From the NCBI RefSeq assembly GCF_025273655.1, contig NZ_CP045921.1, positions 810,001 through 842,000 of the forward strand: a stretch of 32,000 nt of DNA, given 5' to 3'. Shown piece after piece: positions 2,716 to 32,000 of this stretch (positions within the stretch are counted from its first letter, which is position 1; every line of letters begins with the position of its first letter). The notes beneath the pieces are model-generated. The model was not told where the DNA came from. It saw nothing but the letters and a program-made list of their open reading frames with translations, and did no database searches. Source of the stretch: Candidatus Saccharimonadota bacterium (lineage in GTDB: Bacteria > Patescibacteriota > Saccharimonadia > Saccharimonadales > Saccharimonadaceae). A program made the position numbers and the translations under genes.

Positions 2716-2758
2716 AAATCTCTAGGCGTTCGTCGCTCTGCTACACGAGCAAAGTTAC

Positions 2759-5349: not shown

Positions 5350-5373
5350 TGTATCTAGTATATACTATCGTGA

Positions 5374-6663: not shown

Positions 6664-6678
6664 ACGCTAGCCCGACCT

Positions 6679-7449: not shown

Positions 7450-7489
7450 CGTTTCTAATCGCTTATGCTTATGTTGTATTTAGTGTACC

Positions 7490-8716: not shown

Positions 8717-8755
8717 AGCCCACCCTTTTATGTTTATGCTTGAATTATACTCTAT

Positions 8756-10168: not shown

Positions 10169-10180
10169 TACCTAATTATA

Positions 10181-17863: not shown

Positions 17864-19588
17864 ATGATGCTCGCCGTCATCATCGTGGCCACGCTGCTCG
17901 CAGCGTGGTTCGCGTGGCACCAGCTATGGTCGAAAGGCCTTGCGTGTGCGATCGTCGTATTCGGTATTGCGCTCGCCTGGCTGCTCGTCTTTCCGCCCAA
18001 GCTCGGTCCGCTGCAGACACCATTGTACGGTGTCGGCATCGTACTGATGCTCATTTCCATGGCAACTGTGGTCTACCTCTACTTCAAACGAGGTGGCCAT
18101 AGCGCGGATCAAAACCGCGTCGCCAAGGTGAACGGCACAGTCGCCGGAGTCATGGTGACCATCATGGTCGTCGGGGTGGCAATGGCAGTCGGTAATGCAA
18201 CCATGCCGGTCCCCAGCTCCTACAAGGGCGAGGATGTCGTCAAGGCGGCTGTCGTGGGGACGCTCGATTCCGGGCAGACCACGACCGCCCCCAAGGTGAC
18301 AACCGGTGATGCCAACTGCCGCGCATTCGACGCGCCGAAAGGTAGCAACAATTTCGGGCCAACCCCGAATATTGACCTTTCGGACGTCAACGCGGTATGG
18401 CAGCACTACCGAGAGAATGTGGCGAGCGACCCCTGCGTCGCTGCGTCCTGGATCTTGGTACGACGCGACGGGCTGACCGCCAACAAGGAAGAGATCAAGC
18501 AACTCGCTACCGCCTACCGGTCTGACCGGCAGCGGTGGCAGCGGGATCTCGACGGGTACTTCGCCGCAACATGCGGAGTATCGTTGGCGGATCTGGGTGA
18601 CATGCCGTACTACTCGTTCGGCATGATCCCGGGTGCAACTCGTACGGATATCGCCACTCCGACACAGCAATCAGAGCTGCAGAAGATGGGCTACACCTTG
18701 TTCTTCGCCAAGTGCGGCAAGGACAAGAATCCGATCGGGTTTTACGAAGTGGGTAACCGGCCGTTGTGCAACGACCAGCCATCCGCAGCAGCCCCGTTCA
18801 AGGAGATGTCACCAACCGCTCCCCCGCAGCCGATCCGGCCGCCGGGACAGGGTGGTGGGCCACCTCCATCGACACCGCCGACGACGACGCCTCCCACGAC
18901 GACGCCGCCGACAACCACACCGCCGACGACGACGCCTCCCACGACGACGCCGCCGACAACCACACCGCCGACGACGACGCCTCCCACGACGACGCCGCCG
19001 ACAACCACAACATGCCCTCCGGGGCACCCGGACTGCAAGTCGCAGTCCGGTGGCATCGATCCGCCGACAAGTCGGACCCCCGCTTCGCCGCCCCCAAGCA
19101 GCGAGCTGGAGACTTCATTGCCTCCAGAGCCGGATCCGATTGACCCCACCGTCACCTCCGACGCACCCGCGCCGGAGACAACAGTTCCGACCGTACCGAG
19201 TGCGGGTGGACAAACCGGTGGGCAGACCGCCATCCCCGACCCCGGCGCGTTGCCGGGCGGAGGAGATAGCGGTTCGAGCGAAGGTGCAGCCGGCGATGGA
19301 GGCACTGGGTCCGGTAGCGGAACTGGTGGCGATACCGCAGGTTCTGGTGATACTGCCGGCAACCAGCCTGCACACACCAGTGCAGTAGTCACAGGTGAAG
19401 CTGAAGACGCTGCGCCTACCAGCATGGCAATCGAGAACAGCGCCTATTCATCTCCGCTCAGCACAGGTCCCGGCCTCTTGGCCGTGATCGTCTTTGTGCT
19501 GTTTGGCATGCTGATTGGTGGTGCTCTCGTGCTACGCTTCGTGCGACGTCCGGTGGGCGGTGCATACAAGCCTCAGCATCTGGGGTGA
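17864..19588 (+). CDS. Hypothetical polytopic membrane protein with a Cys-containing domain, (PPTTT)n linker, Gly/Ser/Asp-rich region and a C-terminal TM helix
   Basis: ATG at 17864 is preceded by GAGAGGAGG (17848-17856). Four N-terminal hydrophobic helices are followed by an approximately 190-aa domain with 6 Cys. This is followed by nine PPTTT units and then a C-terminal helix (GLLAVIVFVLFGMLIGGALVL) plus RFVRRP. Codons are strongly G/C-ending. No family was recognised. Confidence 0.7.
   Translation: MMLAVIIVATLLAAWFAWHQLWSKGLACAIVVFGIALAWLLVFPPKLGPLQTPLYGVGIVLMLISMATVVYLYFKRGGHSADQNRVAKVNGTVAGVMVTIMVVGVAMAVGNATMPVPSSYKGEDVVKAAVVGTLDSGQTTTAPKVTTGDANCRAFDAPKGSNNFGPTPNIDLSDVNAVWQHYRENVASDPCVAASWILVRRDGLTANKEEIKQLATAYRSDRQRWQRDLDGYFAATCGVSLADLGDMPYYSFGMIPGATRTDIATPTQQSELQKMGYTLFFAKCGKDKNPIGFYEVGNRPLCNDQPSAAAPFKEMSPTAPPQPIRPPGQGGGPPPSTPPTTTPPTTTPPTTTPPTTTPPTTTPPTTTPPTTTPPTTTPPTTTTCPPGHPDCKSQSGGIDPPTSRTPASPPPSSELETSLPPEPDPIDPTVTSDAPAPETTVPTVPSAGGQTGGQTAIPDPGALPGGGDSGSSEGAAGDGGTGSGSGTGGDTAGSGDTAGNQPAHTSAVVTGEAEDAAPTSMAIENSAYSSPLSTGPGLLAVIVFVLFGMLIGGALVLRFVRRPVGGAYKPQHLG
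18872..19006 (+). repeat. Three perfect tandem copies of a 45-bp unit
   Basis: ACACCGCCGACGACGACGCCTCCCACGACGACGCCGCCGACAACC occupies 18872-18916, 18917-18961 and 18962-19006 with no mismatch. It is in frame and encodes the PPTTT repeats. Confidence 0.95.
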
Positions 19589-19619
19589 TCGACACAACTA
19601 AATAGATAGACGGGTATCT

Positions 19620-19650
19620 CCGGGGAGCTAGCCACAAGTTGGCTCCCCGG
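19620..19650 (+). terminator. GC-rich hairpin after the island gene (no U-tract)
   Basis: CCGGGGAGC (19620-19628) pairs with GCTCCCCGG (19642-19650), 32 nt after the stop. The lack of a T-run makes terminator function uncertain. Confidence 0.4.
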
Positions 19651-19660
19651 GATATTCCCT

Positions 19661-19699
19661 AGATGTATCGTAATAATCTGACTTGCACGATCCGAACAT
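19661..19699. repeat. Right inverted-repeat arm
   Basis: The arm is AGATGTATCGTAATAATCTGACTTGcacgatcCGAACAT. Its reverse complement shares blocks of 7, 16 and about 7 nt with the left arm. The core is at 19670-19685. Confidence 0.6.
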
Positions 19700-19744
19700 T
19701 AACAAATCGGTATAGCGCTTGTGTTAAAAAAGTTGTATAAAATA

Positions 19745-19772
19745 TTTACTTTTATAATTTTTGTTGTATAAT
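19745..19772 (+). promoter_or_regulatory. Promoter of the LPXTG protein gene (TTTACT-16 nt-TATAAT)
   Basis: TTTACT is at 19745-19750 and TATAAT at 19767-19772, in a very AT-rich spacer. A 5'UTR hairpin ATGAGCA/TGCTCAT (19792-19812) abuts the RBS AAAGGAG (19813-19819). Confidence 0.45.
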
Positions 19773-19825
19773 GACAATTAAACTATAACAAATGAGCATG
19801 TGGAGTGCTCATAAAGGAGTGTGTA

Positions 19826-21595
19826 ATGAAAAAACTATTCGCTGCGCTGCGAAGCGCACCAAAGCGAGTTGCAACACTGGCTATCGTAGCTGCGGCTATC
19901 GCCGTGCCAGCTAGCCTCTACGCATGGGGTCCAGATCGTCCTACATACACTATGCAGGATCCAGCAGATCACGTGACGTTCAACTCGATCACAGACAATG
20001 CAAAATACGGTGACGAGCGTAACTTCGTCCAAATCCGTGAAGCCGGTACCGGTACTTACGGTGAGAACATAAATATCCAGCCAGGCAAAGAATACGAGGT
20101 ATTCGTCTACTACCACAACAATGCGGCGACACGCCTCAACAGTGCAGAAAATGGCTACAAAGGTATCGCGCAAAACGCAAAAATGCGCATTCAGATGCCA
20201 GCAAGTGTTGCTGCCGGTCAAAAAGCACGTGTTACCGGCGTACTCAGTGCTGACAACGCTCAGCCACAGCAAGTATGGGACGAAGCCTATGGCACCTCTA
20301 CTTCAAATGACACAATGTACCTGCGCTACACACAGGGTTCAGCCACTATCCATAACCTCGGTACTACAAACGGCGCAACAATGCCCGACAGCCTGTTCGG
20401 CGAAGGTGCACCACTTGGCTACAACAGCCTCGATGGCAAGCTGCCTGGTTGTAACGAGTATGCTGGCTATGTCACATTCCGTTTCAAGGCCGTACAGCCA
20501 AACTTCGAAGTTAGCAAGCAAGTATCAAAAGCTGGCGCAAATAGCTACAGCGAAAACGTCACTGTCAATCCTGGCGACAGCGTCAACTACAAAATCCAGT
20601 ACAAAAACACTGGTACTGTTAAGCAAGACAATGTCGTAATCAACGACGTATTGCCAAAAGGCGTTACCTATGTCCCTGGCACTACCTACTACGCGACCGG
20701 CAATAGCAATGGTCAGTGGGTCAAATCAACAAGTGACAACGTGACGAAGGGTGGTATCAATATCGGTACCTTCTCGCCTGGCGCAAATGCCTATGTAGCA
20801 TTCACTGCTAAGGTAGCATCAAACGATGAACTCGAAAAATGTGGTACCAACGTACTCACTAACAAGGCACAGGCAATCACAGAGAACGGCACCAAAGAAG
20901 ACACGGCAGACGTGACCACTAACAAAGAGTGTAAGCCACAGCCAGAGTACAAATGTACCGCGCTCGCTGTCAGCACACTGAGCGACACCAAGTTCAAGTT
21001 TGAAACTGGCTACAGTGTCAGTGGTGGCACGTTCAAGAGTGTCAGTTACACTGTCCGCAACGAAGCTGGTGCAACCGTAGCAACTGTCGCCGGCACACCA
21101 AATGCAGCAGAGTACACTCAGACCACACCAGGTAAGTACACCGTACAGGCAACAGTGACATTCACTGTCAACGGTCAGGACGTAACTGCCACCGGTGACG
21201 CATGTAAAAAAGCGTTTGAGGTACCAACCCCACCACAGCCAGGCGAGATCAAAGTCTGTGACCTCAGCACAAAGCAAATTGTCACAATCAAAGAAGATGA
21301 ATTTGACTCAAGCAAGTACTCGAAAAACCTCGAAGACTGCGCTGAAACGCAAATCATCGTCTGCGACATGACTACCAAAACTATCGTGACGATCAAAGAA
21401 AACGAGCTTGACTCAAACAAATACACCAAAGACACAAGCATGTGCCAGGTTACACCTGTCACACCGACAACTCCAGCGACTCCAGCTGAGCTTCCTATGA
21501 CTGGTAGCACAGACGGACCACTGACTATCGCAGGTCTTGCGACCCTTGCCCTCGTGCTTGGTTACGCAGTCACTGCCCGCCGTACACTCGGCTAA
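19826..21595 (+). CDS. LPXTG-anchored surface protein with a DUF11/'conserved repeat domain' and Cys-bracketed C-terminal repeats
   Basis: ATG at 19826 follows the AAAGGAG RBS. The signal peptide is MKKLFAALRSAPKRVATLAIVAAAIAVPASLYA. A DUF11-like segment reads VTVNPGDSVNYKIQYKNTGTVKQDNVVINDVLPKGVTYVPGT. Two 35-aa repeats fall at 21248-21457. The sorting signal is LPMTG (21491-21505) plus a hydrophobic stretch plus ARRTLG. Confidence 0.85.
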   Translation: MKKLFAALRSAPKRVATLAIVAAAIAVPASLYAWGPDRPTYTMQDPADHVTFNSITDNAKYGDERNFVQIREAGTGTYGENINIQPGKEYEVFVYYHNNAATRLNSAENGYKGIAQNAKMRIQMPASVAAGQKARVTGVLSADNAQPQQVWDEAYGTSTSNDTMYLRYTQGSATIHNLGTTNGATMPDSLFGEGAPLGYNSLDGKLPGCNEYAGYVTFRFKAVQPNFEVSKQVSKAGANSYSENVTVNPGDSVNYKIQYKNTGTVKQDNVVINDVLPKGVTYVPGTTYYATGNSNGQWVKSTSDNVTKGGINIGTFSPGANAYVAFTAKVASNDELEKCGTNVLTNKAQAITENGTKEDTADVTTNKECKPQPEYKCTALAVSTLSDTKFKFETGYSVSGGTFKSVSYTVRNEAGATVATVAGTPNAAEYTQTTPGKYTVQATVTFTVNGQDVTATGDACKKAFEVPTPPQPGEIKVCDLSTKQIVTIKEDEFDSSKYSKNLEDCAETQIIVCDMTTKTIVTIKENELDSNKYTKDTSMCQVTPVTPTTPATPAELPMTGSTDGPLTIAGLATLALVLGYAVTARRTLG

Positions 21596-21643
21596 TACGA
21601 GACTGACCGCTCATCCAAACTGACACGTCAGTTTCTACCAGAA

Positions 21644-21671
21644 CCACCTCTATACGATAGGGGTGGTTTTT
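21644..21671 (+). terminator. Rho-independent terminator
   Basis: CCACCTCTA-tacga-TAGGGGTGG is followed by TTTTT. A second small hairpin, AAACTGAC-ac-GTCAGTTT, lies just upstream at 21617-21634. Confidence 0.75.
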
Positions 21672-21687
21672 GGTAGAATTAAGATAT

Positions 21688-21912
21688 ATGAGCAAACAGA
21701 AAAAAAAGCGTAACAAGCCGTATACTGGTGCTGGCAGCAACGCCGTCCGACCACAGACAATCCGCGTCGAAGCAGTGCAGCGCAACAAGGCGCAGCTGTG
21801 GTGGCACGATCGCAAGCACGTGCTCAAACCCGCACTCATCGCTGCAGCTGTCGTGATCATACTAGGCTATCTGCTCTACGAATTATTTCGTCTTATCTTC
21901 GTCGGCGTGTAG
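21688..21912 (+). CDS. Small basic single-pass membrane protein (74 aa), hypothetical
   Basis: An extended -10 TGgTAGAAT (21671-21679) lies 8 nt before ATG 21688, so the mRNA is probably leaderless. The protein reads MSKQKKKRNKPYTG... and has a C-terminal helix ALIAAAVVIILGYLLYELF. The 3' 30 nt overlap the convergent kinase gene. Confidence 0.5.
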   Translation: MSKQKKKRNKPYTGAGSNAVRPQTIRVEAVQRNKAQLWWHDRKHVLKPALIAAAVVIILGYLLYELFRLIFVGV

Positions 21913-24087
21913 CGCAGCAAGTGGCAAGCTAAAGCCAAATATGCTGCCTTTGCCCTCGCGCGACGAAAAGATGATATCACCACCATGCTCCGAGATGACC
22001 TTTTTTGCCAAATACAACCCCACACCTGTGCCGTCCGGTCGTTGCCTACGTGCATTGCTCGCTCGATAAAACTTGCTAAACAGCCGTGCCTGCGCACTCT
22101 TTGGCACGCCAATACCGCTATCTTCCACCGTAAACACAAGCTTTCCTGCTTTGCGGCCCAGGCGCACATCGATAGTCCCACCTTCGTGCGAATAATAGAT
22201 AGCGTTGTCGATGAAATTCATCACTACTTGGCGCAGCTTACTCTCATCAATCAGTATTTGTTTTGGCAATCTCCCACTTTTCTCAAAATTAAGTTTCAAC
22301 TCCCGCGACTCAGCTGTCGAACGAAGCACATTTACCTCATCAGAAATCATAGCTACAATATCGCTGGGGCGCGTATCAAGTGCAAATCGCCCCGTCTGCA
22401 GACGTGACATATTCAGGAAATCTTCGATAAGACTTACCATACGCTGGCTGCTGGCAAAAGCTTCATTGAGTAAGTGTTTCTGCTGTGCGTTCACCGGCCC
22501 CGCGTCGCCGTCAAGTACGAGGCTGATATAGCCTTTCACGCTCGTAAGTGGCGTACGTAGTTGGTGTGACGCGATGCTCAGAAACTCGTCTTTTACTTCG
22601 TCGATCTTATGCAGCTGAGCGTTGCTATGACGCAACTCTTTGGTGGCAGTACTCACTTCTTGACGCAGGCGTTTGTTAAACGCTTTTATTTCGTCGAAGC
22701 GCAGACCGTTTTGCACGGCGAGCGCAAGTTCGTCAGCCGTCGTAGCTAGCAGCTGCATATCCTGTTCGCTATACGGTAGACCGTTTTGGCGTTCGCCAAA
22801 AAAAAGCACCCCTACCTGCTCGCCCTTTACTAGCAATTGCACGATCACCTGTGCTCCGGAATCTTCTGCCACCTGACGCGTCTCAAACTGTGTGATATCG
22901 CTTACCCGTACTGTCCGTGGCAAATCGGCTAGAATATCTTTGACAATCTCCAGCTGCTGACGATATCGCCTGGGTGTATGTCGTCCACGAAGATTGCGAA
23001 CATAGTGATGTGTACGGCCTTTTGACGACATGATATAGAATGACACATATGCTGGAGCAAGTGCGTCTACCAGCACAGCAAGTGATTTACCGATAACTCG
23101 GTTGAGTTCAATTTCGTTGGCCGTCACGGTGCTAAATTGCTGGAGTACATCGTTGAAATTGTAATCGCGGTGATAAAAGAAACGATACGTCACCTTATCG
23201 AGTAGTGTCCGCAGTGGCCCAAGACTGAGAGACAGCGCCAAGGCTGAGCCCAGATAAAAAAGCTGCTGTACAACATCCGGCTGTGCGTCTCGAAATACCA
23301 TACCACCAATGCCAAATATAATTGCACTGTAGAGCACTACCACTACCGCCGCCACCGCTACATACCCCACCGAACGCGCTACTGCAGCTCGTACATCGAA
23401 AATTCCCTGTGTAATCAGCACATAAAGTAGGTAGCCTGTAAACGCAAACGTAAATGGAGGACCCATCCATATAGCCTCGTAATTACCGAGAAGTGGCAGT
23501 ATGATATCGAAGTACGCACCAGCAACCACTACAATCGCAAGTGTGTAGATAATCATGAGCACCTGGTGAGCGTATTTTTTTGCCCGAGTTCGTCGCACAT
23601 GCCGATAACTCATCATCAAACGCATGAATGCTGCTGCGACAAATCCACCAAAAATCAAGATATATAGAAGATACCAGCTCATGTTCAGCTCAATCGCATT
23701 TAATATCCCCGTTACCGACGCCTGCGCTACTACACCCTGCGGTGCCACCGCAACTAACACAGCTAGGCCGGCTATGGCCCAGCTTACGAGACGCTCTATA
23801 CGACTAACAAACCATGGCACTGGATACTGCAGCGAGAAATTATAGAGGCCAAATGCCATGACAATCGCGGTCGCATAGTATGTCTTAGCACAAAGCTCGG
23901 CAAGCTGCGGATCTTTTTGGAGCATAAACAGCAGCATCAGCAGGCTCCAGGCGCCCGCCCCCAGCACCATCACGCCAGACCAGACATTTATCGAACGACG
24001 CCGACGCGCCAAAAGTAATACTGCACCTACAGCTAGCGCCATAAGTGCGCAGCAGAGCAGTAATATCACCAGTGGATAAATCGTCAC
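21883..24087 (-). CDS. Sensor histidine kinase (multi-TM sensor + GAF-like + HisKA + HATPase_c)
   Basis: The 734-aa ORF starts at a GTG overlapping the upstream stop (GTGA). The N-terminal half has about 7-8 TM helices. A GAF-like segment reads VIVQLLVKGEQVGVLFFGER. The H-box is FLSIASHQLRTPLTSVKGY, the N-box is NFIDNAIYYS, and the G1/G2 boxes are EDSGIGVP and GTGVGLYLAK. Confidence 0.9.
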   Translation of the reverse strand: MTIYPLVILLLCCALMALAVGAVLLLARRRRSINVWSGVMVLGAGAWSLLMLLFMLQKDPQLAELCAKTYYATAIVMAFGLYNFSLQYPVPWFVSRIERLVSWAIAGLAVLVAVAPQGVVAQASVTGILNAIELNMSWYLLYILIFGGFVAAAFMRLMMSYRHVRRTRAKKYAHQVLMIIYTLAIVVVAGAYFDIILPLLGNYEAIWMGPPFTFAFTGYLLYVLITQGIFDVRAAVARSVGYVAVAAVVVVLYSAIIFGIGGMVFRDAQPDVVQQLFYLGSALALSLSLGPLRTLLDKVTYRFFYHRDYNFNDVLQQFSTVTANEIELNRVIGKSLAVLVDALAPAYVSFYIMSSKGRTHHYVRNLRGRHTPRRYRQQLEIVKDILADLPRTVRVSDITQFETRQVAEDSGAQVIVQLLVKGEQVGVLFFGERQNGLPYSEQDMQLLATTADELALAVQNGLRFDEIKAFNKRLRQEVSTATKELRHSNAQLHKIDEVKDEFLSIASHQLRTPLTSVKGYISLVLDGDAGPVNAQQKHLLNEAFASSQRMVSLIEDFLNMSRLQTGRFALDTRPSDIVAMISDEVNVLRSTAESRELKLNFEKSGRLPKQILIDESKLRQVVMNFIDNAIYYSHEGGTIDVRLGRKAGKLVFTVEDSGIGVPKSAQARLFSKFYRASNARRQRPDGTGVGLYLAKKVISEHGGDIIFSSREGKGSIFGFSLPLAALHADEDKTK

Positions 24088-25064
24088 ACCGCTACCTCGT
24101 AGACCGCGTAAACGCCGTCGTCTGGTCGTAGCACCGTCAACTGCCCCAAGGGAATGCCAGCGTGTGCCACTAGCGTCACCACTTCATGCTCTTCGCGCAC
24201 AATTACGCCCGGCCACCCCATGCCGCGCTGATGCACATGCAGATGAGGGTGTGACGGCAGCATATTGGTAAAAAAGAGCGATGCACCAGGCTGCAGGTGA
24301 GTGTAGATACTCTTCAGTAGCAGTACCGCATTGTCGGGAGAAAGATACTCAAACAGACCCATTGCATCGACGATAGCAGGCCGGAAGCCTTTGATCTGAG
24401 CAACCAATTGATCGTTGTGTTGGATAACGTTGAGTTGTGTCGTCTGGAGCGTTTCCGGTGCAATACCATACTCTGTTGACAATGTTGCCGCAGCCGCCAA
24501 TGCGCCTCCGTCCATATCGAGTAGCCGATATGAAACATCGCCTGGCAAGAGTCGTGCCGCATCAAATGTCGCCTGCCCAACACCACACGCAATACTCATC
24601 CAGTGCACTTCGGTTGCATCCCGGTACTTCCCCGTCACACGCCAGGCCATCGCATAAGCACGCGAGCGTACTCCTATGCCATCGTGAGCATGGCGAAAAA
24701 ACGAGCGCGCTAACGGATCGAGTCGTTTGCCGTTTTTAAGTCGCTTACGATCTGGATCGTACGCATGATACGTCACAAATCCGCCCGGCATATAGTCGTA
24801 CAGTGTATGAAACGACGGAGATGCGTAGACAAATGTGCGTGCGATATTGATACGACTGTCAAACTGCGTACGTGGCCGCCTCGACAAGTAGCGATTGAGT
24901 ATATTACCCGAAGTGCGAATCACTGCTCGCTCAAGACCATAACGCGAACGCGAAAAGCGGTCACGCACGGTCAGCGAAATACGCGCGTAGCCTTCGGGCA
25001 TGTCCTGCTTCCGGCTTCGCACCACGCTAAAATAGTCATACTCCTGAGCTCGCTGCTGTGTCAT
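24084..25064 (-). CDS. Class I SAM-dependent methyltransferase-like protein
   Basis: The 326-aa ORF has an ATG start. Rossmann MTase motifs are in order: I MSIACGVGQ, post-I acidic LLDMDG, II IVDAMGLFEYL, III LQPGASLFFTN. The approximately 150-aa N-terminal region was not recognised. The gene is translationally coupled to the kinase. Confidence 0.65.
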   Translation of the reverse strand: MTQQRAQEYDYFSVVRSRKQDMPEGYARISLTVRDRFSRSRYGLERAVIRTSGNILNRYLSRRPRTQFDSRINIARTFVYASPSFHTLYDYMPGGFVTYHAYDPDRKRLKNGKRLDPLARSFFRHAHDGIGVRSRAYAMAWRVTGKYRDATEVHWMSIACGVGQATFDAARLLPGDVSYRLLDMDGGALAAAATLSTEYGIAPETLQTTQLNVIQHNDQLVAQIKGFRPAIVDAMGLFEYLSPDNAVLLLKSIYTHLQPGASLFFTNMLPSHPHLHVHQRGMGWPGVIVREEHEVVTLVAHAGIPLGQLTVLRPDDGVYAVYEVAV

Positions 25065-25108
25065 GTGCTACCCATCTCGCTTATTCTTTGCTATAGTATA
25101 CCCTAGCT

Positions 25109-25477
25109 ATGACCAAAATTGCCATAATCGAAGACGATTCAGCCATCCATCAAATGTACCGCATGAAGTTTGAAAGCGAAGGCTTCGACGTTCAGCTGGC
25201 TGCCGACGGCCGTACAGGTGTGGCACTCGTCAAAACGTTTCGGCCGGATCTTATACTGCTTGACTTGCAGATGCCAGAGGTCGACGGTCTTACAGCACTG
25301 CGCCAAATCCGCGGAGAGGAATGGGGGAAACATATTCCTGTCATCATCCTGACGAACCTAGGTGCAGAAGAGTCGCCAAAAGAGCTGCAATCGCTTGGCA
25401 TTAGTGGTTATATCGTCAAAGCCGACCTCACTCCACGCCAAGTCGTTGCCCGCGTCAAAGAAGTACTTGGCAGTTAA
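25109..25477 (+). CDS. Single-domain (CheY-like) response regulator
   Basis: The 122-aa protein is a receiver domain only, with acidic pair EDD, phospho-acceptor D in LILLDLQMPEVDG, T in ILTN and K in YIVKA. There is no output domain. An extended -10 TGcTATAGT is at 25089-25097, 11 nt before the ATG, with no SD. Confidence 0.9.
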   Translation: MTKIAIIEDDSAIHQMYRMKFESEGFDVQLAADGRTGVALVKTFRPDLILLDLQMPEVDGLTALRQIRGEEWGKHIPVIILTNLGAEESPKELQSLGISGYIVKADLTPRQVVARVKEVLGS

Positions 25478-26292
25478 TTTTGACGGCTCTCGGCCACACG
25501 GCGCGCGGCTAGCAACACATTGTCAAACAGTGCCGCCACCGTTAGCGGACCTACACCACCACGCTCTGGTGTGATCGTGAGATCTTGTCGCTCTCGCACA
25601 TCATGCGCTACATCTCCTCGTATTACTCCACCTTCGCTGGCAGTACCTGCATCTACCACTACGGCATTTTGTGCAATCATGTCAGCCGTAATCACACCCG
25701 GTTGACCAGTTGCAGTGATAATTACTTTAGCCTTGCGCAGTTCCTCGGGGAGAACGTCAGCCGAGGTTTCGTCGTAGCTCATTACATCTACGCCAGAGTT
25801 GCGGAGCATCTTCTCGAGTGGCGCACCCACAAGTCGCCCACGACCCACAATTGCTACGTGTTCCAGGTTGATATTGTAGCCGGCTAGAAGCCACAAAATC
25901 GCAGTTGGGGTAGCTGGATCAAACTGCGCGTGGCTAGATAAGCCATCGACGTCTTTGTCTGCCATAACCGCCTCTATTGCCCCCTCTGTCAGGTCTGCCG
26001 GCGTAACCGGCAATTGCACAATGACACCGTGCACACTATCATCCTCATTCAGTGATTCAATCCTGGCTATGAGGGAGTCTGGCGTTTCGCTATAGACAGC
26101 CACCTCGACGCCGATATCATCACCATATGCTTGCTTGAGGCGAACATATGTTGAGATTACGTCACTCTGGGTATTGCAGCGTACAATAGCAAGTGTTGGA
26201 TGTATGTGGTGCGCTTGCTTAAGATTGCGCACTTGCTTTGCTTGGCGCTCTTTGATGAAATCGACAAGCTCCGAACCAGAAAGTAGTTTCAT
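25474..26292 (-). CDS. folD: Bifunctional methylenetetrahydrofolate dehydrogenase/cyclohydrolase
   Basis: From ATG 26292 the frame reads MKLLSGSELVDFIKERQ. Motifs are YVRLKQ.., VIVQLP, DVDG, VAIVGRGRLVGAPL and PERGGVGPLTVAALFDN. The 32 upstream codons of the track ORF are unsupported. The stop overlaps the convergent RR stop (TTAA). Confidence 0.9.
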   Translation of the reverse strand: MKLLSGSELVDFIKERQAKQVRNLKQAHHIHPTLAIVRCNTQSDVISTYVRLKQAYGDDIGVEVAVYSETPDSLIARIESLNEDDSVHGVIVQLPVTPADLTEGAIEAVMADKDVDGLSSHAQFDPATPTAILWLLAGYNINLEHVAIVGRGRLVGAPLEKMLRNSGVDVMSYDETSADVLPEELRKAKVIITATGQPGVITADMIAQNAVVVDAGTASEGGVIRGDVAHDVRERQDLTITPERGGVGPLTVAALFDNVLLAARRVAESRQN

Positions 26293-26360
26293 ATACGTAT
26301 ATTGTATCAAATCTGGCGACAGTGCTATAGTGAAGATATACTTAAGAGAAAGGTGATGCG

Positions 26361-26903
26361 ATGGATTACGAGACAACCTATCAAACAACTACAACTAGTA
26401 TGTCAGGCGGAGAGGTAGCCGCGCTTACGGGTATGACGCTGTTTTTTGGCATGCTTATCCTGATAGCCTATGTACTCACCGTCGTCGCTATGTGGCGCCT
26501 GTTTACAAAAGCCGGTGAAGCGGGCTGGAAAGCGCTGATACCCGTCTACAACAACTGGGTATTCCTCCGGATGGGAGACCAAGCTGGTTGGTGGTCAATC
26601 GTCAGTCTCGTACCATTTGTAGGCATTGTCGGCTACATCTTTACTGTGATCGCAGCATACAATGTCGGCCTCAAATTACAAAAAGAAGGCTGGTGGGTAA
26701 TACTCTATATCATCGTCCCTATCATCTGGCTCTACATACTAGCATTCGACAAATCTATCTGGAAATCGACTACAGCCGGTACTATTGACTCACCGGTTTC
26801 TAGCGACAGCAATGTGGCCAAACCAGCATACGCACCACCAGAGTCAGCTGCCGATACAGATTCACCAGAAGTACCCGCTACAAAGCCGCCCGTCCAGCTC
26901 TAG
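26361..26903 (+). CDS. DUF5684-like small membrane protein with a disordered C-terminal tail
   Basis: The RBS AAAGGTGA precedes ATG 26361. The core LFTKAGEAGWKALIPVYNNWVFLRMGDQAGWW..LVPFVG resembles the DUF5684 signature (KAG.PGW.ALIP.YN...L......WW). There are four predicted helices. Confidence 0.65.
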   Translation: MDYETTYQTTTTSMSGGEVAALTGMTLFFGMLILIAYVLTVVAMWRLFTKAGEAGWKALIPVYNNWVFLRMGDQAGWWSIVSLVPFVGIVGYIFTVIAAYNVGLKLQKEGWWVILYIIVPIIWLYILAFDKSIWKSTTAGTIDSPVSSDSNVAKPAYAPPESAADTDSPEVPATKPPVQL

Positions 26904-26960
26904 ACGCTTGCTTTTATAGGTGTTTTGATGTACTATACGTGGAGCAAATGCGACACGTAC

Positions 26961-27037
26961 GGGCCAGTAGCTCAGCTGGTTAGAGCACCTGCCTCTTAAG
27001 CAGGGTGTCGAGGGTTCAAGCCCCTCCTGGCCCTCCA
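26961..27037 (+). tRNA. tRNA-Lys (anticodon CUU), CCA encoded
   Basis: The 77-nt cloverleaf has acceptor GGGCCAG/CTGGCCC, D arm GCTC-AGCTGGTTA-GAGC, anticodon stem CCTGC/GCAGG with loop CTCTTAA (CTT), T arm GAGGG-TTCAAGC-CCCTC, and T plus CCA. Confidence 0.9.
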
Positions 27038-27043
27038 CGAAAG

Positions 27044-27069
27044 ATCCACCTCATCGCAGGTGGATTTTT
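27044..27069 (+). terminator. Rho-independent terminator after tRNA-Lys
   Basis: ATCCACCT-catcgc-AGGTGGAT is followed by TTTT. Confidence 0.7.
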
Positions 27070-27102
27070 CGTGGAAACTACCTGTGCCTACTTACACGAG
27101 TC

Positions 27103-27111
27103 TGCTACAAT
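27103..27111 (+). promoter_or_regulatory. Extended -10 element TGcTACAAT of pilin gene 1
   Basis: It lies 13 nt upstream of ATG 27125. An identical TCTGCTACAATA..CCATAA..ATGAGGGA arrangement recurs at 31541-31565 before the paralogous pilin. Confidence 0.45.
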
Positions 27112-27124
27112 AGCCATAAACGTC

Positions 27125-27592
27125 ATGAGGGATGCACAACAGAGTAATGCTGGTTTTACGGTGGTCGAGATGCTTGTCACAGTGGTGCTAGCTGGTATTT
27201 TTATCGCATTCTTTGTGCAGATGTTTCGTGCAACCTCCGCCCAGCAGTCAGCACTCATACGTCAGGCCACGGCCAACGATATCGCACGCTCCAACCTGAG
27301 CAAATTCCCCACTGTTGCCTCCATCGCGGGATACACCTGCGACACCAACTCTAGCACAAGCGCCAACACTAATAACCTGACTATAAATCCAAATGCCGCT
27401 GGCACCGCTATCCTGTCTGACAGTCAAAAAGAAACCGACCCGGGCACTATCGGTACACTTGTCCAAACAGTGCGGGCACTTTCGCCACGAGGTTGTAGTG
27501 GTAGCTACCTACCTGTCAAAATCGTATCGACAGTCGAATATGGGTTCACCGGCCAGCGTGACACAGTGGAGTATGCCACCTATGTCTTCTAG
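27125..27592 (+). CDS. Type IV pilin-like protein (prepilin-type N-terminal cleavage/methylation signal)
   Basis: The leader MRDAQQSNAG|FTVVEMLVTVVLAGIFIAFFV has G-1, F+1 and E+5 followed by a hydrophobic helix. The protein is 155 aa with a Cys pair in the C-terminal half (C..C). The track ORF start at 27005 runs through the tRNA and terminator and is rejected. Confidence 0.8.
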   Translation: MRDAQQSNAGFTVVEMLVTVVLAGIFIAFFVQMFRATSAQQSALIRQATANDIARSNLSKFPTVASIAGYTCDTNSSTSANTNNLTINPNAAGTAILSDSQKETDPGTIGTLVQTVRALSPRGCSGSYLPVKIVSTVEYGFTGQRDTVEYATYVF

Positions 27593-28418
27593 GCCCCGAC
27601 AGCGACATGGCTTCACTGTACCCGAACTACTTGTTGCTATCACTATCTCGGGAATCATTCTCGTTGGGCTTATATCGCTATTCGTTGGGCTGGCCAACAA
27701 CAGTGCTGCGGTTATCAAGACATCCGACCAAATTCGTAACAACAACACCGTCATCAGCTCCATCGAAAGTGACATGCGTCTTACCAAATCCTTTCGTGCT
27801 ACAGCTTCGCTCGCCGACGGCGACTCAACAGCTTCGCCTATACAGCCTAGCGGTTGGGTATTCCGCGGTATCGACAGCAACAGCCGCATACTTATCCTAC
27901 AAACCTACGCCACCACCACCAATAGCAAGGCAGACGAACGACAGATCGTCTATAGAGACGATGGACTCGGTGGGTGCCCAGTCGGGCTCAATCCGGTCTA
28001 CAACAATATTATCTATTTCCTAAAGGATGACACACTCTACCGACGTACACTCGTAGAAGCCACGCCTCCCCCTTCTACTCAGTACTGCGGCAGCACCCCA
28101 ACAGACTCTGTTGCCACTATTTCGCAGAAGCAAACCTGTACCGACGGACAAGCAAGTGGCATGCCCAGCAATTGCCGAGAAAAAGACGTTGCTCTCGCAA
28201 AAGGCATAACTCAATTTTCTATCCAGTATTATCAAAACCCCAGTGACAGTACTACACTTAACTCTGTATACAGCATGACAGACACAGATGCCAACACCGC
28301 GCTCAGCGGCACTAGTTCACTTCGTATCGATGTCACAACCAAGGGAGAACCGACAGCAAATATTGCAGACATTGCGTCGTATCGTCGCCTCTCGAAAGGA
28401 GCACTCCGTGTATTCTAA
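27582..28418 (+). CDS. Minor pilin-like protein (PilW/GspJ-like size) with a prepilin signal
   Basis: The leader MSSRPRQRHG|FTVPELLVAITISGIILVGLISLFVG has G-1, F+1 and E+5. The protein is about 278 aa. The start is ATG 27582 (GGAG 10 nt upstream) or ATG 27573, and it overlaps the pilin 1 stop. Confidence 0.75.
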   Translation: MSSRPRQRHGFTVPELLVAITISGIILVGLISLFVGLANNSAAVIKTSDQIRNNNTVISSIESDMRLTKSFRATASLADGDSTASPIQPSGWVFRGIDSNSRILILQTYATTTNSKADERQIVYRDDGLGGCPVGLNPVYNNIIYFLKDDTLYRRTLVEATPPPSTQYCGSTPTDSVATISQKQTCTDGQASGMPSNCREKDVALAKGITQFSIQYYQNPSDSTTLNSVYSMTDTDANTALSGTSSLRIDVTTKGEPTANIADIASYRRLSKGALRVF

Positions 28419-31400
28419 TACCCGCCAACAGGGCTTCATACTGCCAGCGCTGATCGTACTCTCACTGTTACTCATGTCGATGGGGCTAGTTGCTCTTCAG
28501 TACGTTGCGTCTTCTACCAACTCAGTCCAATCAGCATTTTATAACAATATGTCTAAAGAGGTGGCCCACGCAGGCGCATCCCTCGCATACAGCTGCCTCC
28601 GTAGCAACGGTGGCGCCGCCCAGTGGACAGGTAGCAAAAAAGCCCTAACCGTAGGAAGCGACTGCGCGGGTATTACCTACGCCGGCGGAATAGACTGTGC
28701 AGCAGGCAGAGATGCCAGCATAGCTCCCGATACCAGCACCCTATCACAGGGACCAAATGGTAGCTGGAAATCCCGGTTCATCGTATGCGAGCCGACAGTG
28801 GGCACTGGAGGTATTAGCTATATCGCAAAAGGCATTGTCGAATTCTACTATGCCGGAAGTAGTACTCCCACGCGGAGCTTCACAAGCCTCACAAAAGTCA
28901 ATATTCCGTATGATCTCAGCGCCTCAACAGTCCGCAAAGCTGTCGGCAAGGCAGTCACCCAGATGGAATCTGGCGGCAACTCCAACTGCGCCATTGCCAA
29001 TCAACAGTTGTATTGCTGGGGCGTCAATAACGTAGGTCAGATGGCACAGGGTGGCTCTGACACCGCAAGCCGCTCCTCACCCACACTTATCACCACTGGT
29101 GCCTTGAGCGGTAAACGGGTCACCTACACATCGATGGGCTACACAAATGGTTGCGCCATTGCCGACGGTCGCAGTTATTGTTGGGCAATCAACCAACGCG
29201 GCCAACTTGGCAATGGCACAGCACCAGGCTTTCTATCGGATTTCGATATCGTCGCACTACTTGCTGCGACGCGCTACCAGCCGACTCAGGTCACTGGCCC
29301 ACTCGCAAACGTTAATACTACCAAAATATCTGCCAGCTGGGCCCTAGATAACAATGCCGATCGCTCCCATAGTTGCGCACTTGCAAACGGTGCAGTATAT
29401 TGCTGGGGAAGTAACTACTATGGACAGCTCGGACAGCCGAAGTACGAAGGCGCCGTAGATGTACTCTGTGCGGCAAGTGGATGGGTAGCTGGCTACATTT
29501 TATTCGTGCCGTCTTCGTGGCTCTGCCCCAAGCCAGAATATACGGGCATGAGCATTGGTGACAATCACGACTACTATTCACCATCTCCAATTCTAGGCTT
29601 CGGCTCTCGCCCCCAAGAAAGCCAGGGGCTTTTCTATGGCAAACGCGTTACAGACTTCGACACTGGTGTATTTGGTGATTGTGCAATTGCCAATGGCTCA
29701 GTATATTGCTGGGGAGAGAATACACTACAGGTTCGAGGGTCGGCAGATCCCCTCGGGGGACTCACGACACAATCGACCAATGCGCTCAAGCAGGGTGATT
29801 TATCTGGCCGTTACGCTACATCCGTCGCTGCCGCCTCTACATCGGCATGTGCGGTAGCCGATGGCCGTATGAACTGCTGGGGACGTTTGCGTGGTGATGG
29901 CGTCGATAATGTAGTCGGTAATAGCACGCCTAAGGCCGTCACTGGGCTACCGGATGGAGATAAAGTTATCGACAAAGTCAAAAGCTCTACCGAGCTCTCT
30001 GGACCAATCTGCGGCTTCGGATCTGGTGACTCTTACTGTTGGGGACTGAATCAGCCCGGTACTGCAAGTCCCCTGCATGTCAGGCCAACCATGCTTAATA
30101 CCAATGAATCAATTACAGATGGGGGCACCGGTGGTGGCGCAGCTGGTCTCTTTGGCATAGGTGGCACCCCCGGCAACAGTTGCTATGTCGCAAATGCAAC
30201 CGTTTACTGTATCGGCAATAACGAATATGGTCAGCTAGGAAACGGCACTACGGGCGGATCATCTGGTAGCTCATTTGTGAAAGCCAATACCATAGGTCTC
30301 ACCGACGGCAAAGCCGCCACCGACATCTCGTCTGGCACTGACTACAGCTGCGCAATAATCGATGGTCAGCCTTACTGTTGGGGCAACGGTAGTAGCGGCA
30401 AGCTTGGTAACGGCGACAGTCTCAATCGCACCCACCCATATGGTGTCAATGGCCTGCCCGACTCGACGTCGTCGACACAGGTTACCGCCGGCAACGCTCA
30501 TTCATGCTCAATCACAGGCGGTCACGCCTACTGCTGGGGTAGCAATGCGTCTGGGCAAGTCGGAAGTGGTGCTAATAATCCACAACTATCTGCTCGTCTC
30601 GTGACGGGTAGTGGTTTTGAAAGTATGGCAGTCACCGACATCTCAGCCGGGCGAGATCACACTTGTGCTGTCGCAAATAGCAAGGCCTATTGCTGGGGAC
30701 TTAACACTTATGGCCAACTTGGCAATAACACGACTACTGCAACAGGTACGCCTACAGCTGTCCGAGCCAACAGTGGCGATGCACTATATGGCAAACAGGT
30801 GACCAAAATCGTTGCCGGTGATCGATTCACCTGCGCGATCGCCGACGGCCAGCCTTACTGCTGGGGGGAGCGCGCTAGCGGTAAAATTGGCAATGGTGGT
30901 AGCACTAGTGGCAATACACTACTCCCCGCGGCTGTATCAAATATGACAGGCGCTTCCACCGATCTTGAAGCTGGACCAGATTATGCGTGCGCTATCGAAA
31001 GCGGCATACCGAAGTGTTGGGGCGAAAATCAGTACTACCAACTCGGTATTAATAGCACCGTTGATCAGACGACTCCCACTACCAACACCACATTACAAGG
31101 TAGCTCTAGTAGTCCAAAAAACACCACTTCCATGGCTCTTGGAACCTCTAGCGCCTGTGCAATTACCAATGGTACCACCTACTGCTGGGGCAGTCGTGCC
31201 AACGGGCGCATCGGTAACGGAGGCACCACTACTGGTAACACTGCCACTCCTACGGCAATCACGGAAGTCAACTCTACGACAGACCTAGGACCCCAAAATA
31301 CTCCGTATAAACTGTCGGCTGGCAGCTTCGGCTCTTGTGCGATAGCCAACGCCCGCATCTATTGCTGGGGTGACGGCAGTCAAGGCCAGATGGGTACCGA

Positions 31401-31494
31401 CACCACACCTTCAGCCACACTCGCACCAGGTATCACTGCCGACTATACACGAGATGTCACTATTATCTCTTGGGCAAATACTATCTTCTACTAA
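28408..31494 (+). CDS. Giant PilX-N-like pseudopilin fused to 14 RCC1-type beta-propeller repeats
   Basis: GTG at 28408 lies 5 nt after AAGGAG (28397-28402) and overlaps the upstream gene by 11 nt. The N-terminus VYSNTRQQGFILPALIVLSLLLMSMGLVAL has no Glu at +5, as in PilX_N-type minor pilins. It is followed by 14 repeats of the pattern C(A/S)I..G..YCWG.N..GQLG.G. Confidence 0.8.
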   Translation: MYSNTRQQGFILPALIVLSLLLMSMGLVALQYVASSTNSVQSAFYNNMSKEVAHAGASLAYSCLRSNGGAAQWTGSKKALTVGSDCAGITYAGGIDCAAGRDASIAPDTSTLSQGPNGSWKSRFIVCEPTVGTGGISYIAKGIVEFYYAGSSTPTRSFTSLTKVNIPYDLSASTVRKAVGKAVTQMESGGNSNCAIANQQLYCWGVNNVGQMAQGGSDTASRSSPTLITTGALSGKRVTYTSMGYTNGCAIADGRSYCWAINQRGQLGNGTAPGFLSDFDIVALLAATRYQPTQVTGPLANVNTTKISASWALDNNADRSHSCALANGAVYCWGSNYYGQLGQPKYEGAVDVLCAASGWVAGYILFVPSSWLCPKPEYTGMSIGDNHDYYSPSPILGFGSRPQESQGLFYGKRVTDFDTGVFGDCAIANGSVYCWGENTLQVRGSADPLGGLTTQSTNALKQGDLSGRYATSVAAASTSACAVADGRMNCWGRLRGDGVDNVVGNSTPKAVTGLPDGDKVIDKVKSSTELSGPICGFGSGDSYCWGLNQPGTASPLHVRPTMLNTNESITDGGTGGGAAGLFGIGGTPGNSCYVANATVYCIGNNEYGQLGNGTTGGSSGSSFVKANTIGLTDGKAATDISSGTDYSCAIIDGQPYCWGNGSSGKLGNGDSLNRTHPYGVNGLPDSTSSTQVTAGNAHSCSITGGHAYCWGSNASGQVGSGANNPQLSARLVTGSGFESMAVTDISAGRDHTCAVANSKAYCWGLNTYGQLGNNTTTATGTPTAVRANSGDALYGKQVTKIVAGDRFTCAIADGQPYCWGERASGKIGNGGSTSGNTLLPAAVSNMTGASTDLEAGPDYACAIESGIPKCWGENQYYQLGINSTVDQTTPTTNTTLQGSSSSPKNTTSMALGTSSACAITNGTTYCWGSRANGRIGNGGTTTGNTATPTAITEVNSTTDLGPQNTPYKLSAGSFGSCAIANARIYCWGDGSQGQMGTDTTPSATLAPGITADYTRDVTIISWANTIFY

Positions 31495-31540
31495 CGACGC
31501 GTATTGGCCGCATTAACTCGTATGGTCTCGTGGACGAATC

Positions 31541-31549
31541 TGCTACAAT
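31541..31549 (+). promoter_or_regulatory. Extended -10 element TGcTACAAT of pilin gene 2
   Basis: It has the same sequence and the same 13-nt distance to the ATG as at 27103-27111. Confidence 0.45.
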
Positions 31550-31562
31550 AACCATAAGGATT

Positions 31563-32000
31563 ATGAGGGATATGCGGAGCGATACAGGTTTTACATTGGT
31601 GGAAATGCTTGTAACAGTAGTACTGATCGGCATATTTATTGCATTTTTCGTACAGATGTTTCGCGCAGGTGCCGCACAACAAGCGTCCATCGTACGCCAA
31701 GCAAAAGCCAACAACCTCGCCTACTCCAACCTCAGCAAATTCCCACGCGCTTCCAGTATTTCACCAGCCTACGTATGTGATACCTCCACCAACACTTCTA
31801 CCAATCAAAATAATCTGACAATCAATCCGAATGCAGCTGGCACACTCATACTTAGTGATGCAAGCGCCAATAAAGAACCGACAGACAGTGCACTGCCTAA
31901 TGCCACGCAGGAAGTCAGAGCATACTCCCCACAGGGATGCGGATCAAATGCCCTGGTAAAACTTATTTCAACAGTAACCTACGGTTTTACTGGCCAACAA
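31563..32000 (+). CDS. Type IV pilin-like protein, paralog of 27125..27592 (3' end beyond window)
   Basis: It is not in the ORF track because there is no stop in the window. My translation reads MRDMRSDTG|FTLVEMLVTVVLIGIFIAFFVQMFRAGAAQQASIVRQAKANNLAYSNLSKFPRASSISPAYVCDTSTNTSTNQNNLTINPNAAGTLILSD...STVTYGFTGQQ. It is colinear with pilin 1 along its whole visible length. Confidence 0.8.
   Translation, partial: MRDMRSDTGFTLVEMLVTVVLIGIFIAFFVQMFRAGAAQQASIVRQAKANNLAYSNLSKFPRASSISPAYVCDTSTNTSTNQNNLTINPNAAGTLILSDASANKEPTDSALPNATQEVRAYSPQGCGSNALVKLISTVTYGFTGQQ

Follow-up and report, generated by a model that had tools for sequence, protein, structure and literature searches.

Two complete tandem cassettes of minor-pilin and RCC1-propeller genes at a tRNA-flanked slot in a Saccharibacteria genome, probable alternative pilus-tip adhesin modules

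For Saccharibacteria, which spend their lives attached to bacterial hosts, the question of what determines host range is still open. The stretch analysed here (hereafter the window) comprises 32,000 nucleotides (nt) of contig NZ_CP045921.1 of Candidatus Saccharimonadota bacterium, positions 810,001 to 842,000. At its end, at window positions 27103-32000 on the plus strand, stand three overlapping genes, V1, W1 and X1, of which the first two encode type IV prepilins and the third a large RCC1-type propeller protein, followed by the start of a fourth gene, V2, which resembles V1. Is the whole set duplicated, how old is the duplication, and what would a cell use two such sets for? Two complete cassettes of ancient divergence are present, and they are probably alternatives to each other as pilus-tip adhesin modules of a single type IV pilus system. 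The features of the locus are the following, in window coordinates, with a slash marking the presumed prepilin cleavage site.

26961-27037, plus strand: tRNA-Lys(ctt), the left edge of the cassette slot, conserved in relatives (ARAGORN, Rfam).
27101-27119, plus strand: promoter-like motif P1, TCTGCTACAATAGCCATAA, an extended -10 (TGnTACAAT) upstream of the ATG of V1.
27125-27592, plus strand: V1, a type IV prepilin of 155 amino acids (aa) with leader MRDAQQSNAG, mature start FTVVEM and two invariant Cys.
27573-28418, plus strand: W1, a type IV prepilin of 281 aa (278 aa if started at ATG 27582) with G/FTVPEL and four invariant Cys.
28408-31494, plus strand: X1, an RCC1 protein of 1028 aa with GTG start and the N-terminus QQG/FILPAL.
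28408-28935, plus strand: N-terminal anchor domain of X1 (aa 1-176; AlphaFold models).
28936-30177, plus strand: RCC1-type beta-propeller A of X1 (about aa 177-590), seven CWG blades with insertions (PF25390, PF00415 and PF13540; model; blade repeats).
30178-31494, plus strand: RCC1-type beta-propeller B of X1 (about aa 591-1028), seven blades, predicted local distance difference test (pLDDT) mostly >85 (Pfam, model, Foldseek).
31539-31557, plus strand: promoter-like motif P2, TCTGCTACAATAACCATAA, 44 nt after the X1 stop (repeat family D11, 4438-nt spacing).
31563-32000, plus strand: V2, the first gene of cassette 2, truncated by the window end; the full protein has 157 aa and the gene ends at window-equivalent position 32036.

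W1 overlaps V1 by 20 nt when started at 27573 and by 11 nt when started at 27582; X1 overlaps W1 by 11 nt, with AAGGAG 7 nt upstream of its GTG. The region past the window end was read from a public contig (L001), found by exact-protein look-up, which is identical to window positions 18980-32000 (0 mismatches in 13,021 nt) and extends 5 kb further. There V2 (157 aa) is followed not by unrelated genes but by a minor pilin gene, W2 (260 aa, G/FTIPEL), and a second giant RCC1 gene, X2 (968 aa, RAG/FVLPAL); 3' of X2 stand a hairpin with a T-run (terminator), tRNA-Arg(tcg) on the minus strand and murB. With V2-W2-X2 complete and bounded by terminator, tRNA-Arg and murB, exactly two complete collinear three-gene cassettes (V-W-X) lie between tRNA-Lys(ctt) and tRNA-Arg(tcg), at a repeat period of 4435-4438 nt. 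Three more assemblies of the species, L002, L018 (on the 596-kb contig ERZ28620716 scaffold_2) and L020, have the same layout. Rfam reported nothing besides the two tRNAs.

A first-pass annotation, made from the letters of the window, had placed a second pilin gene directly after the third gene and had taken the arrangement for a duplicated cassette and not a single operon. Both claims stand: V2 begins at 31563 and matches PF07963 (E-value 7e-7), and the second V-W-X set is complete in L001, with its own promoter motif and its own RCC1 protein. Each cassette thus has a large RCC1 protein of its own (1028 and 968 aa), as had been expected of a tip protein. Equally, the claim that the two copies have no assembly ATPase, platform or prepilin peptidase gene for a pilus between them can be widened, as none is encoded across the whole 32-kb window.

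Each cassette also begins with the same signal. The TCTGCTACAATA block, its 12-nt spacing to the ATG and the first three codons (ATGAGGGAT) are identical before V1 (27101) and V2 (31539), which agrees with the paralogy of -10 element, short leader, first codons and protein that had been proposed for the two genes. The 19-nt motif TCTGCTACAATANCCATAA occurs twice in 32 kb, at P1 and P2 only, against 0.02 occurrences expected, and is found at constant distance 5' of V in 9 of 11 cassettes from 8 genomes. Because it is conserved at the same distance before V across species, the motif is read as a promoter with an extended -10, a very short leader and no Shine-Dalgarno sequence; this is good comparative evidence that P1 and P2 would be real promoters. 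A sigma-70 consensus scan missed both P1 and P2 (no -35 match) and found no more sites than in shuffled sequence, and the promoter call therefore rests on conservation and not on that scan. No intrinsic terminator was found between X1 and V2, so that cassette 2 may be transcribed from P1 and P2 alike. The -10 hexamer is separated from the ATG by about 13 nt and no Shine-Dalgarno sequence precedes V1 or V2 (27113-27124 and 31551-31562); the V mRNAs would thus have next to no leader, or none. For W and X, sites of the GGAG type lie within the preceding gene.

How old is the doubling? Between cassettes 1 and 2 the proteins share 62% (V), 39% (W) and 41% (X, over its full length) identity. The nucleotide alignment, which the first-pass annotation had suggested as a means of dating the event, gives 53.5% DNA identity with a longest identical run of 12 nt, the promoter core, and thus an old split with no sign of recent gene conversion. 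On the same values recent gene conversion and recombination-based switching between the cassettes were rejected, and the swapping of adhesive specificity that had been envisaged is unsupported as far as recombination between the copies is meant. A concentration of the divergence in one propeller was likewise rejected, X1 and X2 being 43% identical in the anchor, 38% in propeller A and 46% in propeller B. Between strains, which are about 1% divergent, the ratio of nonsynonymous to synonymous polymorphism (pN/pS) is ≤0.16 for all six genes, similar to murB or folD; both cassettes are therefore under purifying selection, and strain-level diversifying selection was rejected as well.

The gene order around the cassettes, read in every relative with enough flanking sequence, is conserved: a seven-transmembrane (7TM)-GAF histidine kinase, a methyltransferase, a receiver domain, folD, a DUF5684 gene, tRNA-Lys, V-W-X, tRNA-Arg, murB, one or two classical pilins and SHMT. 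All close relatives (L004, L005, L006, L007, L009, L012/L024, L019 and ERZ1305449) have a single V-W-X in this slot; a comparison of copy number across related genomes, as had been recommended, thus gives one cassette in close relatives and two here and in L013. In both cassettes and in all relatives the start codon of X overlaps the preceding prepilin gene. A genome scan with a W profile yielded five environmental Saccharibacteria metagenome-assembled genomes.

Neighbour-joining trees of V, W and X, calculated from 11 sequences, are congruent and resolve the same three clades. Type I comprises window cassette 1 and the cassettes of L004, L005, L019, L006 and L009, type II comprises window cassette 2 and those of L012 and L007, and type III both cassettes of L013. 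The single cassettes of L025-L028, with L013 as best tblastn match, were left out of the trees. From the congruence it follows that the trio is inherited as a co-evolving unit. By murB, SHMT, folD and the histidine kinase the window species is nearest to L004, which has type I only, and to L007, which has type II only; since its nearest relatives carry either type singly in the same slot, the split between types I and II predates these species.

This age also bears on the idea that one of the two cassettes is merely a redundant copy in the course of being lost, which would suit the fact that close relatives get by with one. Such a decay is very improbable and already largely refuted: none of the six reading frames is broken in any of four independent assemblies, pN/pS does not exceed 0.16 in any gene, the promoter motif is kept, and the split is old, both by DNA identity (53.5%) and by the precedence of types I and II over the species.

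Doubling has occurred elsewhere. L013 (CAZCYG010000014.1, uncultured Saccharibacteria) has a tandem V-W-X pair of its own at 2648-11197, with copies 43%, 43% and 38% identical; as these copies are each other's closest relatives, this doubling was independent of the one described here, and doubling has happened more than once. For the pair in the window two histories are possible, an ancestor with both types followed by loss in the relatives, or movement of cassettes between lineages. Cassette 2 is closest to the cassette of L012/L024 (57% identity in X, 63% in V), a lineage that is more distant than L007 by murB, SHMT, folD and the histidine kinase, whereas the type II cassette of L007 reaches only 46% in X; exchange or rate differences could be the cause.

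Within the second history, cassette 2 would have been captured laterally from another Saccharibacteria lineage at the tRNA-flanked slot and would not be the remnant of an ancestral tandem. The affinity to L012/L024 is as such a capture would predict, the slot is bordered by tRNA genes, and islands with serine recombinase lie at its right edge in L005 and L026. We regard the capture as possible, though doubtful: unequal rates on long branches can explain the incongruence in neighbour-joining trees of 11 sequences, neither an integrase nor repeat scars nor a composition break was found beside cassette 2, the junction at P1 is repeated cleanly at P2, and the mutually closest copies of L013 demonstrate that duplication in place does occur.

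The islands of L005 (13170-18435) and L026 (14082-18544) contain a serine recombinase/resolvase together with small unknown genes and are situated between X and tRNA-Arg/murB. Their presence in two unrelated genomes marks the right edge of the slot as an integration hotspot. At the left edge, tRNA-Lys(ctt) lies on the opposite strand in L005 (8529-8605) and L006 (8460-8536) as compared with the window (26961-27037), which is read as a small local inversion beside the cassette promoter.

What do the three genes encode? The prepilin test comprised a short basic leader up to Gly(-1), Phe(+1), Glu(+5), about 20 hydrophobic residues and a hidden Markov model (HMM) match above cut-off. V1, W1, V2 and W2 pass PF07963 and/or TIGR02532 (prepilin N-terminal methylation) above the cut-offs, with PF07963 E-values of 7.9e-5 (V1), 1e-5 (W1) and 7e-7 (V2) and the signal motifs NAG/FTVVEM (V1), RHG/FTVPEL (W1), G/FTLVEM (V2) and G/FTIPEL (W2). 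Gly, Ala, Ser and Thr together (GAST) account for 36-46% of V, W and X (40% of V1), compared with 26% of MurB, and V, W and X have conserved Cys pairs in the alignments, both as expected for exposed pilins. Among NCBIfam models, V has sub-threshold matches to GspH (1.5e-4 and 1.6e-6) and PilV (2.3e-6), and W to PpdB-type, HpsC and GspJ proteins (W2 against gspJ 4e-4). Profiles of V and W compared with PDB sequences matched the N-terminal helix of pilins only, from which no subtype can be assigned. A cassette has three genes, as against the four core minor pseudopilins GspH/I/J/K, equivalent to FimU/PilV/PilW/PilX.

Further pilin genes follow murB. Two classical FTIVELLIVIVVIGILAAI pilins, A and A', of 150 and 174 aa and 76% identical to each other, are located 1.3 kb beyond cassette 2 (L018 18547-18999 and 19089-19613). 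Their N-termini read KGFTIVELLIVIVVIGILAAISIVAYNG (KGFTIVELLIVIVVIGILAAI...), and their best sub-threshold matches are GspG, PilA and ComGC. One or two such genes are present in all relatives, and A and A' are likely a pair of major pilins. Because V matches GspH/PilV and the genes after murB match the major subunits GspG/PilA/ComGC, V is read as a probable minor pilin of GspH/PilV type; W is a probable minor pilin of GspJ/PilW type. The first gene of the cassette, initially called the pilin, is thus more likely a minor one.

The same genes may be arranged differently, as was implicit in the first-pass annotation: each cassette would build its own filament, so that there would be two pili, one made mainly of V1 and the other of V2, and neither would share its minor pilin or tip protein. 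V indeed stands first behind the conserved promoter with its very short leader, is small (155 aa), has a canonical G/FTxxE signal, is the best conserved member of the trio (62-73% identity) and, with 40% GAST, equals the major pilins of Nanosynbacter lyticus TM7x. Two separate filaments nevertheless appear unlikely, given two classical pilins with more typical major-pilin N-termini 1.3 kb downstream and in every relative, and given that such weak family matches as V has are GspH and PilV, both minor pilins. The equivalent locus of TM7x, moreover, has a separate and highly expressed major pilin. This pilin-only 'locus three' consists of pilV2, pilW2, pilX2, pilA2 and pilZ2 (Grossman et al., ISME J 2025, PMC12206443; preprint PMC11623550), where pilA2 encodes the highly expressed major pilin of the thin T4P-2 pilus and the machinery is encoded at a separate locus (PMC12206443).

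X is the most distinctive component. X1 matches PF25390 (1.8e-117), PF00415 (3e-65) and PF13540 (7e-28), and its 14 C-W-G motifs correspond to the blades of two seven-bladed propellers. In an AlphaFold model based on a 26-sequence alignment (pLDDT 80, predicted template modelling score 0.76) a single N-terminal helix of 55 residues (12-66) is followed by a 4-5-stranded beta-sheet domain up to about residue 170 and by the two propellers. The best Foldseek matches of the propellers are UVR8 and RCC1 (E 1e-31; template modelling score 0.86-0.91 to UVR8, target-normalised), and the best 44 are UVR8, RCC1, HERC2 and RPGR. PilY1 has no Pfam match in X1 and is absent from the top 50 Foldseek matches.

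In the anchor of X1 a Gly-Phe precedes the hydrophobic segment and Cys63/Cys86 are conserved. An exhaustive profile search showed that this anchor of about 160 aa belongs to a family of 865 clusters (at 50% identity), 806 of them at E ≤1e-10. It is always N-terminal, in proteins of 146-1861 aa, and bears the signature basic-GFALPT[VI]LIAS, with the Gly-Phe nearly invariant across the 865 clusters and always preceded by a short basic leader. RCC1 blades, 7 or 14 in number, occur in about one fifth of the best 143 family proteins; the other heads are Gly_rich_2, ConA-like Laminin_G_3, Fibrinogen_C and DUF2341. Where the sources name the organism, it is Candidatus Saccharibacteria. A word-index search with the anchor profile gave short fragments for the most part, with no TM7x protein among them. 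Such varied heads on one anchor place X in a modular display family whose heads, lectin-type for the most part, are interchangeable, and the fusion of the anchor to lectin-type modules would fit an adhesin-display platform.

Double-RCC1 proteins of about 1030 aa in Propionibacteriaceae and Propionicimonas (P0061, P0071, P0084 and P0090) are without the pilin-like anchor but align with the two propellers of X1, at about 30% identity and across some 80% of its length. Both groups are Actinobacteria, to which the hosts of cultured Saccharibacteria belong; a clue to where the module came from may lie here.

The reading that we consider probable is that one type IV pilus system is served by two tip-adhesin modules, each an alternative to the other. 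V, the small, and W, the larger minor pilin, would form the tip or priming set of the pilus, and X would combine a pilin-like membrane or helix anchor with two seven-bladed RCC1 propellers acting as adhesin. V, W and probably X would be cut at Gly-1/Phe+1 by the prepilin peptidase of the cell, and a machine of PilB/PilC/PilM type, whose genes would lie elsewhere, would assemble the modules. The growing polymer of the major pilin, for which one of the two genes after murB is the probable source, would push the tip set outward, where the propellers of X would bind a ligand on the host-cell surface. As types I and II are both kept here, one pilus system would be able to show one adhesin or the other. 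What we infer is the location at the tip, the role as adhesin, the processing of X, the activity of the promoters and the sharing of one machine and one major pilin; the adhesive role in host attachment, already suggested by the first-pass annotation, is judged the best reading.

The closest known counterpart is locus three of TM7x, from the same phylum. It shares with the locus described here a pilin-only composition apart from the assembly genes, a small and a mid-sized minor pilin, a large minor pilin with pilin-like N-terminal helix, non-canonical signal and RCC1 propeller, and a separate major pilin in the same neighbourhood, here probably A/A' after murB. PilX2 of TM7x is a minor pilin with a lollipop N-terminus, a non-canonical signal and a hepta-bladed RCC1 propeller (PMC12206443). 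Its deletion halves host binding, as do deletions of pilA2, pilB2 and pilC2, and by analogy to PilY1 it was proposed by its authors as a tip adhesin (PMC12206443). The two loci differ in that the trio occurs here twice in tandem, as two ancient types; in that PilX2 has a single hepta-bladed propeller, whereas X has 14 blades in two propellers; and in that murB and tRNA-Arg here separate the trios from the major-pilin-like genes.

Several observations weigh against tip modules of this kind. Deletions of pilV2 and pilW2 in TM7x have no binding phenotype, and pilX2 is dispensable for filament formation (PMC12206443), so that a strict role as 'priming complex' is unproven even in TM7x. V, W and X are likened to PilV2, PilW2 and PilX2 by description and not by sequence, and the minor-pilin subtype matches of V and W all lie far below the curated cut-offs and mostly cover the N-terminal helix only. 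The machinery genes of this genome lie outside the region read, with none in the 32-kb window. X1 and X2 have Ala instead of Glu at +5 and no match to PF07963 or TIGR02532; PilX_N (PF14341) is unmatched by X1 at E up to 0.1; and the isolated X anchor model (pLDDT 77), compared with the PDB by Foldseek, gave nothing significant (best E 0.24). When PF14341 was compared with eight diverse N-termini of the anchor family, one was matched at E 2.4 and 8.7 bits (cut-off 25.5). The 'AK.AA.AG' helix that follows the hydrophobic helix is a resemblance of X to PilX_N seen by eye. Without a match to PilX_N or to a solved structure, 'PilX-like' denotes for X a resemblance in topology and motif. The initial statement that all three genes begin with class III or PilX-like N-termini accordingly has HMM support for V1 and W1 and lacks it for X1, which matches neither PF14341 nor the prepilin models; in the HMM searches that had been proposed with it, PF07963 (V1, W1 and V2) and RCC1 (X1) were confirmed and PilX_N was not.

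The missing signals of X could also mean that X is an ordinary surface protein, held by a signal anchor or carrying a Sec signal peptide, that works independently of pili and is merely co-transcribed with the prepilin genes. Besides the absent Glu+5, the absent prepilin and PilX_N matches and the lack of significant similarity of the anchor model to solved pilins, it speaks for this that SignalP called no PilD site in PilX2 or PilX1 of TM7x (PMC12206443). We consider a pilus-independent X quite improbable, as the Gly-Phe before the hydrophobic segment is nearly invariant in 865 clusters and follows a short basic leader, the modelled continuous 55-residue helix on a sheet has the 'lollipop' topology of pilins, and the start of X overlaps a prepilin gene in both cassettes and in all relatives. 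Minor pseudopilins of the GspK type also have no Glu+5, yet are cleaved by prepilin peptidase, which counts against taking its absence as a sign of independence. Finally, the pilX2 mutant of TM7x phenocopies the pilA2 and pilB2 mutants in host binding (PMC12206443).

Alternative tip modules for one pilus have a parallel in Myxococcus xanthus, which has three clusters, each with fimU-pilV-pilW-pilX-pilY1 (Treuner-Lange et al. 2020, PMC7541494). There, too, several paralogous sets of minor pilins and a propeller adhesin exist in one genome, all of them presumably for a single major pilin and a single machine; the sets form a priming complex, which comes to lie at the pilus tip, and alternative sets can replace each other. 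In contrast to the cassettes described here, M. xanthus is diderm and has four minor pilins per set; no head-to-tail tandem of two clusters with duplicated promoters is described for it; its PilY1 is not a pilin but a protein apart, the propeller of which is of PilY1 type and not RCC1 type; and its PilX proteins match PF14341, which X does not.

For the joining of pilin and adhesin in one polypeptide, the modular type IV pilins of Streptococcus sanguinis are comparable, PilB with a vWA module and PilC with a lectin module (Raynaud et al. 2021, PMC8179133). In this likewise monoderm organism a pilin moiety is grafted to a binding module so that the pilus displays an adhesin, just as the anchor family of X is found on varied modules (RCC1, ConA-like lectin, fibrinogen-C, glycine-rich). 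The streptococcal proteins differ by their canonical class III signals with Glu+5 and their position inside the locus of the pil machinery, and no tandem duplication of a set is described. The PilY1/PilC tip adhesins of Pseudomonas and Neisseria are also large proteins with a C-terminal seven-bladed propeller at the tip, co-encoded with minor pilins and active in adhesion. PilY1, however, has a Sec signal and docks on minor pilins, whereas X has a pilin-like anchor of its own; the likeness of X to PilY1 would be one of function and not of family membership.

A full-text literature search (minor pilin, RCC1, Patescibacteria) yielded the work of Grossman et al. alone, in which duplication or tandem copies are not mentioned. 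The first-pass annotation had held the reiterated cassette to be an architecture not yet described. This applies to the tandem doubling. It does not apply to the single module, which is of an already described kind because locus three of TM7x has PilV2, PilW2 and the RCC1-propeller protein PilX2, nor to multiple sets for one machine, as in M. xanthus. Four features seem to be undescribed: that a whole trio is doubled head to tail together with its promoter, that ancient types of cassette exist at a single conserved slot, that X has two propellers, and that the anchor family is of such size and modularity.

Upstream of the slot, window positions 21883-25477 encode the 7TM-GAF histidine kinase, a methyltransferase-like gene and the stand-alone receiver domain, whose synteny with the slot extends to all close relatives and which together form a putative regulator of the pilin genes. 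Further upstream lies a conserved surface protein of 596 aa with DUF11/CLIPPER repeats and an LPXTG sortase anchor (19805-21595). The minus strand at 253-2715 encodes a pair of neighbouring, paralogous DUF348-G5 proteins, of which one has a transglycosylase-like domain of the resuscitation-promoting-factor type; the pair is unrelated to the cassettes.

The result refines and extends a recently described machine; it does not disclose one of a new kind. In the one genetically tractable system, the first step of host recognition is best ascribed to PilX2 as a candidate. Added here is that the module is a self-contained, separately promoted three-gene unit, which exists in at least two ancient types, occupies one slot and can be doubled. 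More tentatively, and with considerable doubt, the slot between tRNA-Lys and tRNA-Arg might be a host-range locus of Saccharibacteria, in which V-W-X types segregate or are exchanged like the tail-fibre cassettes of phages; tandem genomes such as this one and L013 would then display two adhesins on one pilus system, and the anchor family of 865 clusters would be a general adhesin-display system of episymbionts. If the slot is indeed such a locus, genomes with tandem pairs could recognise two species of host or two ligands on host surfaces. The number and type of cassettes offer a concrete genomic marker to be correlated with host range, and doubling could widen the range of hosts that a cell is able to grip.

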